From a virus (lineage: Duplodnaviria > Heunggongvirae > Uroviricota > Caudoviricetes), in the IMG/VR virus record IMGVR_UViG_2939521961_000007: 32,179 nt of DNA; one strand, written 5' to 3'. Below, one piece after another: positions 15,001 to 18,000 of this stretch (the stretch's first letter is position 1; every line of letters starts with the position of its first letter). A program made the position numbers.

Positions 15001-18000
15001 CAAACAAAACCCGCCCACAAGCGGGTTTTGTTGTGCCACTTATCTCGGATAGACATGGTGAATGCGCTGGTGGAGGAGATAAGGGTGATTTTTGTATGCT
15101 TGCAACATTGATTTCGTAACGTTATTATCCTGCGCCCGGCCCTTTAGCTCAGTGGTGAGAGCGAGCGACTCATAATCGCCAGGTCGCTGGTTCAAATCCA
15201 GCAAGGGCCACCAACCGCCACTAGCCATCAGGAAAGAGCGTCAACCCTTTAAGTTGAGTGTGCGAGGTTCGAGTCCCCGGTGGTGGTCCATTATCGGTAT
15301 TCTGCGTTGTTAGCTCAGCAGGACAGAGCAATTGCCTTCTAAGCAATCGGTCACTGGTTCGACTCCAGTACAACGCGCTACACTTATTTTCCCGGCTCGC
15401 TTTTGCGGGCCTTTTTTGTATCTGCGCCACGCCCGGCGCATACCAACCACAGAGCCTTTCGGGGGGGGGGGGGAGCTTACGGAGTGGTCAGTGTGACTTT
15501 CTCTGTGGGCAGATCGCTCCCGGGCGTTGGCTCACCCACCCAAAGGAACGTCACGATGTTTGGTATTTTTGGTAAAAAAAGCCCGCAGAGCGGCAACGGA
15601 AATTAAAAAGTTTGAAAAACGCGATCTGGCACAGGTGGTGATTAACGCCGCCTACCTGGTGGCCTATGCAGATGGTGAATGTGAGGCTTCCTAGAAAGCG
15701 AAGATCGAACAGGTACTGCGTAATCAGCCTGCGCTGTACGCGTTTACGTCAGAAATTAATGCGATTAGCGCAACCATTATCGGTCAGCTGGATACGAACT
15801 TTAAAACTGGTCGTCGTGCGGCGTTACGTGAGATCGAGGATGTGAAACACGATACGCGTGAAGCGGAAGATGTGCTGGATGTGGCGGTGGCCATTGCGGA
15901 GGCAGACGGCGAAATTGAGCCGGAAGAGCGCAAGGTGCTGGAAGAGATTGCCGGTGTTCTGGGTCTTCGTCTGGAGAATTACCTGTGACGGTAAAACTGC
16001 GCCTGACTGTGGCTGCACTCCTGCTGTTTCTGGTGGTGATGGTGGATTTCACCAGCAGAATCATGTCGGTGCTGGCGGATGGGGTGCTGGTCTGCGGCAT
16101 TATGGTATTGCTGTGGCCGGTGATAAAAAGAAACAGCCTGCATAATGCTTGATTTTTTTGTTTGCTGTTTATTAAAAACACTTCTGCATGGTGAATCCCC
16201 CTGTGCGGTGGGGCAATCAGCAAGAAGGAATATGGGGTAATCGCGGATTCAGGTGCTGATACTGAATTCACCGGGAGGCACCCGGCACCATGCTTTGCCA
16301 CAAAAGTGTTATTTCTGTTTTTCTCAAACTATCATCGTTATCCCTTTATTTTCGGCTGCGCATGGCGCGGCCTTTTTTTTACGACCAGCCACTGGCAGAT
16401 GGTCATCCTGTGATTTGATTCCGCTTCCGGCTTTTTAACTCTGTTCCTCTACACGGGAGAAATTCGATGTCGATTAAACATTACGATGTTATCAGGGCGG
16501 CGTCGCCGTCAGACCTTGCGGAAAAGCTGACACACAAACTGAAAGAGGGCTGGCAGCCATACGGCGGACCGGTTGCCATTACGCCGTACACACTGATGCA
16601 GGCGGTGGCTATTGAAGGAGAGCCACAGGTCGGCCCTTCATCTGAGCCGGATTGGTACTACGTCATCGTACTGGCCGGGCAGTCCAATGCCATGGCTTAC
16701 GGTGAAGGGCTTCCGCTGCCGGATTCATACGATGCTCCGGATCCGCGCATTAAACAGCTGGCGCGCCGCAGTACAGTTACGCCGGGTGGGGCTGCCTGCA
16801 GATATAACGATATTATTCCGGCCGACCACTGCCTGCATGATGTGCAGGATATGAGTACGCTGAATCATCCGAAGGCAGACCTGAGCAAAGGGCAGTACGG
16901 CTGTGTCGGCCAGGGGTTACATATTGCCAAAAAACTGCTCCCGTATATCCCGAATAACGCGGGGATCCTGCTGGTACCATGCTGTCGTGGTGGTTCGGCA
17001 TTTACCCAGGGCGCGGAGGGGACATTCAGTGCGGACACGGGGGCCAGCCAGGATTCGGCGCGCTGGGGTGTGGGTAAACCGTTATATCAGGACCTGATTG
17101 CGCGCACCAAAGCTGCATTACAGAAGAACCCGAAAAATGTGTTGCTGGCGGTGTGCTGGATGCAGGGAGAGTTTGACATGAGCGCCGCCACCCACGCACA
17201 GCAACCTGCGCTGTTTACAGCCATGCTGACACAGTTTCGTGCTGACCTCTCCGTGTTTAACGCGCAGTGCCATGGTGGCAGTGCTGCAGATGTGCCGTGG
17301 ATTTGTGGTGACACGACGTATTACTGGAAAAATACCTACGGCACCCAGTACAACACCATTTACGGGGCGTACAAAAACAGGGAGAGTGAGGGCGTTTATT
17401 TTGTGCCCTTCATGACAGACGGTAACGGCGTCAATACCGCCACTAACGCGCCGGCAGAAGATCCGGATATTCCGGCATCAGGATATTACGGTGCGGCATC
17501 GAGAACGAATGGAAACCAGGTATCATCAAACCGCCCGACACATTTCAGTTCATGGGCGCGCAGGAGCATTATTCCGGATCGTATGGCAACCGCTATTCTG
17601 AACGCAGCCGGGCGCACCTCAGCCTTCATCAGTGGTAAGGCACCGGAAATCAAACCCTCGCCCGGCGGCAACACGCCATCGGGTCCGTCTGCAGATACGT
17701 CCGTTCGCACAATCTCCCTGCTGCCGGCAGCCGGAGAGGCTGCTGCGCAGGGCTGGAGCATTAAGGATGGCGGAATTCAGTTGTCAGATGGTGTATTTAA
17801 GATCACCAAGCAGAGCAATAAAACCTGGTCCCTGACGCATCCGGTGGATGACGCAATTACCCTGCTGACACAGGGCGGCAGACTGACCTGTAAGTTCCGC
17901 CTGTCAGGCGCACTGACCAACAATCAGTTCGGGCTGGGGATTTATCTGTATACGGATGCTCCCGTTCCTGATGGTGTGGCGATGACGGGTACCGGTAATC

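Follow-up and report, generated by a model that had tools for sequence, protein, structure and literature searches.

A tciAB cassette with an inactivated tciA gene at the stx-equivalent position of a defective lambdoid prophage

In Stx phages, the interval between the tRNA cluster and the nanS-p gene of the late operon holds the Shiga toxin genes. The locus considered here, which is part of a 32,179 nt stretch of prophage DNA (hereafter, the window), raises the question of what occupies this interval when stxAB is absent, and whether its genes are still intact. A first-pass annotation had proposed a decayed two-gene cargo of unknown function. Taken as a whole, the locus is very probably a tciAB moron cassette in the stx slot of a lambdoid late operon, with tciA as a pseudogene and tciB intact. 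Such a locus is ordinary and already known in its parts: the genes have been named, the pseudogene is listed in RefSeq and the exchange of cargo in the stx slot has been published (PMC9413875).

The prophage and its cargo slot

The window was attributed to a defective ompW-integrated prophage of EHEC O26:H11-type strains (str. 11368 type). It aligned with the prophage of O26:H11 11368 in two blocks, which were 99.96% and 100% identical, and one IS600 of that prophage was absent from the window. According to RefSeq, the ompW prophage of O26:H11 11368 is degraded and contains several or many pseudogenes, and no head or tail (morphogenesis) genes were found in its annotation. Type III effector genes are annotated further along the same prophage. 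RefSeq features were transferred from this near-identical locus (window coordinate = locus coordinate minus 621) and, together with the results of other searches, gave the following features around the cargo:

14253..14942, plus strand: antiterminator Q gene (RefSeq annotation of the O26:H11 11368 locus; ORF list)
15003..15032, strand not assigned: hairpin at the tR' position, just downstream of the late promoter (terminator scan)
15138..15213, plus strand: tRNA with anticodon CAU, ileZ-type, tRNA-Ile in RefSeq (ARAGORN; Rfam tRNA, 72.5 bits)
15215..15290, plus strand: degenerate tRNA with anticodon UUU (ARAGORN; Rfam, 28.2 bits versus a cut-off of 29)
15304..15378, plus strand: tRNA-Arg with anticodon UCU, argO-type (ARAGORN; Rfam; RefSeq)
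15394..15411, plus strand: terminator-like hairpin after the tRNA cluster (terminator scan)
about 15429..16167, plus strand: tciAB cassette replacing stx2AB between shared flanks (BLASTN versus VT2-Sakai)
15461..15473, plus strand: G13 tract in the tciA leader (sequence; alignment of loci)
16157..16329, plus strand: STnc100-family sRNA element, PasD-like (Rfam, 100.8 bits; cut-off 47)
16354..16372, plus strand: terminator-like hairpin followed by a T run (terminator scan)
16467..18320, plus strand: nanS-p type sialate O-acetylesterase gene with DUF1737, SASA and DUF6645 domains (ORF list; Pfam; RefSeq)

The late operon begins downstream of the Q gene, and its elements follow in the order of Q, the hairpin at the tR' position, three tRNAs, a hairpin, the leader, tciA, tciB, the STnc100 element, a hairpin and nanS-p, with the holin and lysozyme genes coming after nanS-p. 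This layout can be read as a cargo slot framed by Q, tR' and the tRNAs on one side and by the STnc100-like sRNA, nanS-p and the lysis genes on the other. Note that the hairpin at 15003..15032 has symmetrical arms and the consensus scan listed it on the minus strand only; its putative role as tR' was assigned by analogy with the lambdoid late-operon layout. The STnc100-like element starts 5 nt past the tciB stop codon; in Stx phages it comes after stxB. The length of the G13 tract differs among the loci. In the ompW prophage of O145, ISEc20 is inserted at the point of this tract.

The tRNA cluster had initially been described as the trio ileZ-argN-argO. The first and third members were indeed found to be of the ileZ and argO types, but the middle one cannot be called argN. 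This degenerate tRNA has a UUU anticodon and a broken D stem, is one base shorter than the copy in the phage Evi and has no RefSeq annotation at the O26:H11 11368 locus; it occupies the position of argN (UCG) in the O157 and Stx phages.

To compare the slot with that of stx-positive phages, BLASTN alignment with VT2-Sakai was used. Homology was found at 15100–15428 and resumed at 16168, and in VT2-Sakai stx2A and stx2B lie exactly between these two flanks. The Shigella phage 75/02 Stx has the same right-hand junction after stxB. The position is therefore demonstrated to be equivalent to that of stx, as had been proposed in the first place. The left flank shared by the window and the Stx phages (VT2-Sakai and 75/02 Stx) comprises the Ile/Arg tRNA cluster and its terminator with an identity of 87%, the hairpin at 15394..15411 being the last element common to the Stx2 phages ahead of the cargo, and the shared right flank comprises the STnc100-like element and nanS-p. 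Late Q-dependent transcription is presumably alike in both. The cargo itself is unrelated, namely a predicted cytoplasmic TerB-fold protein with a membrane hairpin here versus a secreted AB5 toxin in the Stx phages. To our knowledge, tciAB has no virulence role. With identical flanks, the two cargos are clean alternatives and provide a natural control for studies of expression from the stx slot. A comparison from 2022 had already described, in an O157:H7 prophage, "a tellurite resistance protein in place of the stx2d gene" (PMC9413875).

Reading frame of tciA and its two lesions

The cargo itself contains the following features:

15556..15988, plus strand: tciA pseudogene, TerB family (Pfam; alignment with intact homologs; RefSeq)
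15560-15988, plus strand: pseudogene in RefSeq, 'internal stop' (O26:H11 11368 annotation)
15574..15580, plus strand: lesion 1, a run of seven A residues (A7) versus six (A6) in intact alleles, i.e., a +1 insertion (alignment)
15692..15694, plus strand: lesion 2, amber codon TAG in place of GAG for the conserved Glu46 (alignment; allele counts)
15985..16152, plus strand: tciB (DUF3927), 55 aa, intact (ORF; Pfam; PHROG; hydropathy)

The intact TciA homolog matched the Pfam TerB family (PF05099) with 60.2 bits (cut-off 24.4) and spanned PHROG 632 ("tellurite resistance") end to end. Sequence alignment showed that residues 15–137 of intact TciA correspond to residues 21–144 of the Klebsiella TerB with the solved structure 2JXU (E 3.1e-7). 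The stretch of the window after the amber codon scored 32.8 bits on its own against the same Pfam cut-off, so the resemblance to TerB is not due to chance, and the identification of a disrupted TerB-like gene at 15556 is upheld. We take two acidic D-G-x5-E motifs to be the definition of TerB, following the established TerB literature. In the window, the second of them (ADGEIEPEE) is intact, and the first reads ADGECEAS followed by TAG, the Glu codon having become the amber codon. The window gene thus lacks the uninterrupted frame of a TerB gene, which is broken by the insertion at 15574-15580 and by the TAG at 15692-15694.

The ancestral start of tciA is the ATG at 15556, with the Shine-Dalgarno sequence AAGGAA (15543–15548) 8 nt upstream. 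Because of the +1 insertion in the A7 run, the frame of this ATG contains only 16 codons and stops at TAA 15604–15606. In the +1 frame, the TerB-like reading goes on through TAG 15692–15694 to TGA 15986–15988. Alignment with intact homologs confirmed both the frameshift near an A-run and the single amber codon reported by the first-pass annotation: the window has GGT followed by seven A residues where the phage JLK-2012 has GGT followed by six and the phage Evi has no long A-run, and it has TAG where both of these phages have GAG. The intact copy L005, located in another prophage of the O157:H7 strain 86-24, differs from the window at both lesions in the same way. The initial description was therefore accurate to the base.

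The two lesions differ in their consequences. Glu46 ends the first DGxxxxxE motif of the TerB domain and was found in 6/6 aligned full-length homologs, down to an identity of 28%. With the amber codon, everything past residue 45 is lost, which is two thirds of the TerB domain. Since the insertion misframes the ATG reading and the amber codon follows, a stub of at most 44–45 residues can be made; the window copy of tciA is dead through the amber codon, whatever the frameshift does. The frameshift alters the first 8 codons only. These encode the N-terminal motif M-[FL]-G-x-x-x-K-K, which is kept down to 28–41% identity, and in the form M-[FL]-G-[IF]-x-x-K-K is conserved in the P1, jumbo-phage and N4-like homologs.

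Starting from the TTG at 15560, which is in frame, a protein of 142 aa (MVFLVKK...) can be read, and RefSeq lists only an 'internal stop' at this locus because this start hides the frameshift. It is conceivable, though not the reading we prefer, that the amber codon is the only true lesion and that the A7 allele is viable from TTG 15560, as RefSeq models it. RefSeq annotates the A7/GAG allele of O157:H7 86-24 as intact (142 aa, WP_001303558.1), this exact protein was found on at least 1000 contigs, and in the same sequence context A7 is far more common than A6 (554 versus 8 records). On the other hand, this abundance largely reflects clonal sampling of EHEC. Measured from the Shine-Dalgarno sequence, the TTG is 12 nt away and the ATG 8 nt, the out-of-frame reading from the ATG runs across the TTG, and use of the TTG replaces the conserved N-terminal motif. 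For these reasons the frameshift alone probably makes a hypomorph or a null allele; it may be less than null, since TTG 15560 could start A7 alleles that have no amber codon. The window copy is dead through its amber codon in any case. Since annotation pipelines choose the TTG, the tciA frameshift goes unseen, and the 142-aa TerB protein that is common in O157:H7 and passes as "intact" may therefore itself be a hypomorph or null.

The tciB gene begins with GTG at 15985, which overlaps the tciA stop TGA (15986–15988) as GTGA, and it has its own Shine-Dalgarno sequence GGAG (15973–15976). Its product matched Pfam DUF3927 (PF13064) with 60.4 bits (cut-off 25) and filled PHROG 1470 ("TciB-like") over its full length (E 1.8e-29). 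A hydropathy scan found hydrophobic stretches at about residues 5–24 and 26–48, which agrees with the earlier description of an overlapping 55-aa peptide with two transmembrane segments. A four-way comparison with P1, 434 and JLK-2012 revealed a conserved DF(T/S)S turn between the stretches and a conserved DG in the second one. The tciB gene was intact in every copy examined. Of the proposed decayed two-gene cargo, then, decay applies to the first gene and not to the second, and a function "unknown" gives way to membership of the named tciA/tciB family (PHROG 632/1470, Pfam TerB/DUF3927). The names tciA and tciB are themselves homology-based designations: the literature on tciA/tciB, DUF3927 and TerB in morons contained only naming by homology, plus the call of non-essentiality from CRISPRi in P1. 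No meaningful match for TciA or TciB was found among the PADLOC defence models.

Distribution and age of the lesions

At least 39 complete E. coli genomes from different laboratories, including O26:H11 11368, contain the 1091-bp region without a single difference (100% identity), and 347 records match it at 99% identity or more. Alleles were counted as exact matches of 65-mers in complete E. coli records, with the following results:

A7: 554 records
A6 in the same sequence context: 8 records
TAG in the window background: 186 records
TAG in a second background (one nearby SNP): 521 records
GAG in the O157 background: 297 records
GAG in the window background: 2 records

The first-pass annotation had been ready to give up the lesions if related phages held a single intact gene and the lesions were read errors. 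The first half applies, since related phages do have the gene in one unbroken piece; the second does not, as both lesions are genuine and occur widely. There is next to no probability that the frameshift and the amber codon arose in sequencing or assembly and that the gene is truly intact. One lesion lies in a homopolymer and the nearby G13 run makes the region rich in homopolymers; against this stand the complete identity of the region across the genomes of several laboratories, the numbers of records with the A7 and the two amber 65-mers, and the nature of the amber codon, which is a substitution and unlike a homopolymer change.

In genomes with the element, its median copy number is 3–4. 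A third copy type (O157:H7 H6437, L006) has the same amber codon, with its 5' end replaced by unrelated sequence. Three exact sequences of intact 143-aa TciA, for example, were found among E. coli assemblies on 653, 118 and 103 contigs, respectively, and the exact TciB protein of the window on at least 1000 contigs. Most of the tciA copies counted, which come largely from complete genomes of EHEC, are affected by one or both lesions.

The breadth and stability of the lesion-bearing alleles, together with the ability of A-runs to support slippage, might suggest that TciA is restored by programmed recoding, i.e., by transcriptional or ribosomal slippage on the A-run combined with read-through of the amber codon. 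We regard this as extremely improbable. Intact homologs (A6, GAG) need no recoding, one of the copies with the amber codon no longer has its 5' end, the window contains no suppressor tRNA (none of the three anticodons, CAU, UUU and UCU, reads UAG) and two independent recoding events in a gene of 143 codons would be unprecedented. Slightly less improbable, but still very unlikely, is a functional mini-TerB made from the C-terminal fragment after the amber codon, such as the 48-aa ORF from GTG 15842. The product, which is predicted by gene callers on at least 1000 contigs, forms a family of its own (PHROG 3920), and the second DGxxxxxE motif is still present in it. Automatic ORF calling on a pseudogene that is itself common accounts for these numbers, however; the fragment makes up one third of a single helical domain, and upstream of the GTG there is just one purine-rich stretch, whose end about 2 nt from this codon gives a poor spacing for initiation.

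In comparisons between the intact tciA of JLK-2012, Evi and L005, pS was 0.20–0.32 and pN was 0.012–0.023, with a ratio of 0.05–0.12. The low pN/pS marks tciA, where it is intact, as a genuine protein gene under strong purifying selection. The window tciA differs from L005 by only 5 substitutions besides the two lesions, so its inactivation is recent; the differences between the window pseudogene and the intact alleles are too few to measure selection. It is a speculative and rather unlikely suggestion that the loss of tciA exceeds neutral decay and is perhaps favoured, e.g., in strains with their own ter island. As part of the same reading, the live cargo of the slot could be tciB and the STnc100/PasD-like sRNA, because most of the counted copies of tciA are lesioned while tciB and the sRNA are intact.

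The tciA–tciB pair in other phages and its possible role

Intact lambdoid cassettes (JLK-2012 of O55:H7, Evi, PPyecE and copies in O157:H7) have the leader, genes and slot of the window, the slot again extending from the tRNA cluster to nanS-p. The 1.1-kb region of the window shows about 90.7–92.5% nucleotide identity to JLK-2012 and Evi, and is near-identical to the O157:H7 copies. The intact cassettes have A6 or no long A-run, GAG and a product of 143 aa from the ATG, whereas the window has A7 and TAG. The two genes are adjacent in the lambdoid phages JLK-2012, where they are annotated as tciA and tciB, and Evi. They are also adjacent in the virulent N4-like phage Pollock, in which both Pfam domains were confirmed. 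In the Erwinia jumbo phage ChrisDB the pair is adjacent by annotation only, and the small gene had no Pfam match. The phages 434 and 2B8 contain tciB without tciA. A TerB-like partner for the lone tciB of 434 was sought in the upstream gene and rejected; this gene encodes a 247-aa membrane protein without a Pfam match.

In the phage P1, as here, the TerB gene of the tciA-tciB(-tciC) operon leads directly into a DUF3927 gene whose product has about 54 aa and two transmembrane segments, the stop and start codons overlapping as TGATG in P1 versus GTGA in the window. Intact lambdoid TciA shares 41% identity with its P1 counterpart, the motifs DFTS and DG recur in TciB of both P1 and the window, and the P1 tci operon also adjoins phage tRNA genes. 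The pair of the window lies in a lambdoid late operon and not at the P1 position, and its tciA is inactivated. A TBLASTN search of the window with P1 TciC gave only noise, and the STnc100-like sRNA stands after tciB instead of tciC. The P1 tciABC genes were found to be non-essential in a CRISPRi screen, and their function was assigned by homology.

The terZABCDEF cluster confers tellurite resistance, phage inhibition and colicin resistance. TerB of this cluster (2JXU) shares its domain with TciA over nearly the full length, including the two DGxxxxxE motifs. Apart from the TerB-like gene, no member of the ter cluster (terC, terD and others) is present in the window, and the partner of TciA is a DUF3927 peptide where that of TerB is TerC.

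In a sigma-70 scan, the stretch from the tRNA cluster to tciA contained no promoter-like site, and for this reason we infer that in intact phages tciAB would be transcribed late, by read-through under Q antitermination, as its position also suggests. Translation of tciA and tciB would then be coupled. TciA would be a cytoplasmic TerB-fold protein with acidic motifs, which probably binds divalent cations, and it might act at the inner membrane with the two-transmembrane hairpin TciB during lytic growth. This model of a TciA–TciB membrane complex draws on three things, namely the adjacency of the genes, their putative coupling and the analogy with TerB. The presence of the pair in strictly virulent phages argues for a role in the lytic cycle over one in lysogenic conversion. 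The window allele can give no functional TciA, but its TciB may still be made, using the ribosome-binding site of tciB itself. The inactive tciA presumably persists through its linkage to intact tciB, the sRNA and nanS-p, helped by recombination among the many lambdoid prophages of EHEC.

The tciAB pair is widespread among phages: lambdoid, P1-like, N4-like and jumbo phages share the combination of TerB and DUF3927, which frequently lies within a cluster of phage tRNA genes. One might go further and suppose, with little confidence, that TerB and DUF3927 form a conserved membrane module of the lytic cycle, which maybe serves as a counter-defence against phage inhibition of the Ter type.

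Annotated start and leader of tciA

The 7-A allele of tciA, in which a run of seven A replaces the six of the intact gene, was found to begin in RefSeq at a TTG codon (position 15560 of the window) located 4 nt downstream of the ancestral ATG, and the frameshift is thereby concealed. In the window, an internal stop is the sole defect listed by RefSeq for tciA. The O157:H7 copy of the same allele (L004, 3016-3444) is annotated as an intact protein of 142 aa, which is present on at least 1000 contigs.

The tciA leader contains the following feature:

15461-15473, G13 homopolymer

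The length of this tract is highly variable among the aligned loci, ranging between about 6 and 13 G. In the O145:H28 ompW prophages (L009), ISEc20 was inserted precisely at the leader G tract, and the whole stretch from tciA to the lysis genes is absent.

tRNA genes beside tciA

The tRNA in the middle of the upstream cluster (15215-15290) is not an argN gene, and its anticodon is UUU. Its score with the Rfam tRNA model was 28.2 bits, slightly below the cut-off of 29 bits, and its D stem is broken. The copy in the phage Evi is one base longer and was identified as tRNA-Lys using ARAGORN. A comparison with the tRNA-Arg(UCG) located at the same position in O157 prophages revealed that two anticodon-stem pairs differ, each on both sides. 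These paired changes suggest that the anticodon was switched in a formerly functional tRNA, with later decay in the window copy.

Pairs of tciA and tciB were also found within or adjoining the tRNA clusters of unrelated phages:

Phage P1 (L010), 149-1809: trnA, trnT, tciABC, trnI
Erwinia jumbo phage ChrisDB (L011), 377-2768: Trp, Cys, tciA-tciB pair, Tyr, Gln, Ile, Met, Glu
Phage JLK-2012 (L002), 3764-4758: Asn, Thr and Gly tRNAs upstream of the tciA-tciB pair

This location could reflect either a functional link or merely a common hotspot for accessory genes.

Region downstream of tciB

A strong match begins 5 nt past the tciB stop codon:

16157-16329, STnc100-family sRNA element (100.8 bits)

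The same element is located downstream of stxB in Stx1 and Stx2 phages. According to a 2026 preprint, PasD-type prophage sRNAs are located upstream of the sialate esterase gene, and the window element corresponds to them.

The stretch of the window from the interior of tciB to nanS-p (16019-18323) shares 93% identity with phage 434. However, phage 434 carries tciB (L008, 2661-2819) without tciA, in place of which a 247-aa membrane protein with no match in Pfam is encoded upstream.

Rest of the prophage

The sok and DicF RNAs are typical of Qin/Rac-like cryptic prophages. Both RNAs were detected in the window using Rfam:

11705-11854 (+), sok antitoxin RNA, adjoining hokD
4537-4588 (-), DicF sRNA, adjoining dicB

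O26:H11 strain 11368 contains a 1.27-kb IS600 after the antirepressor gene, whereas the window lacks this insertion (at about 20400). Apart from IS600, the two sequences differ at nine positions in the first 20.4 kb.
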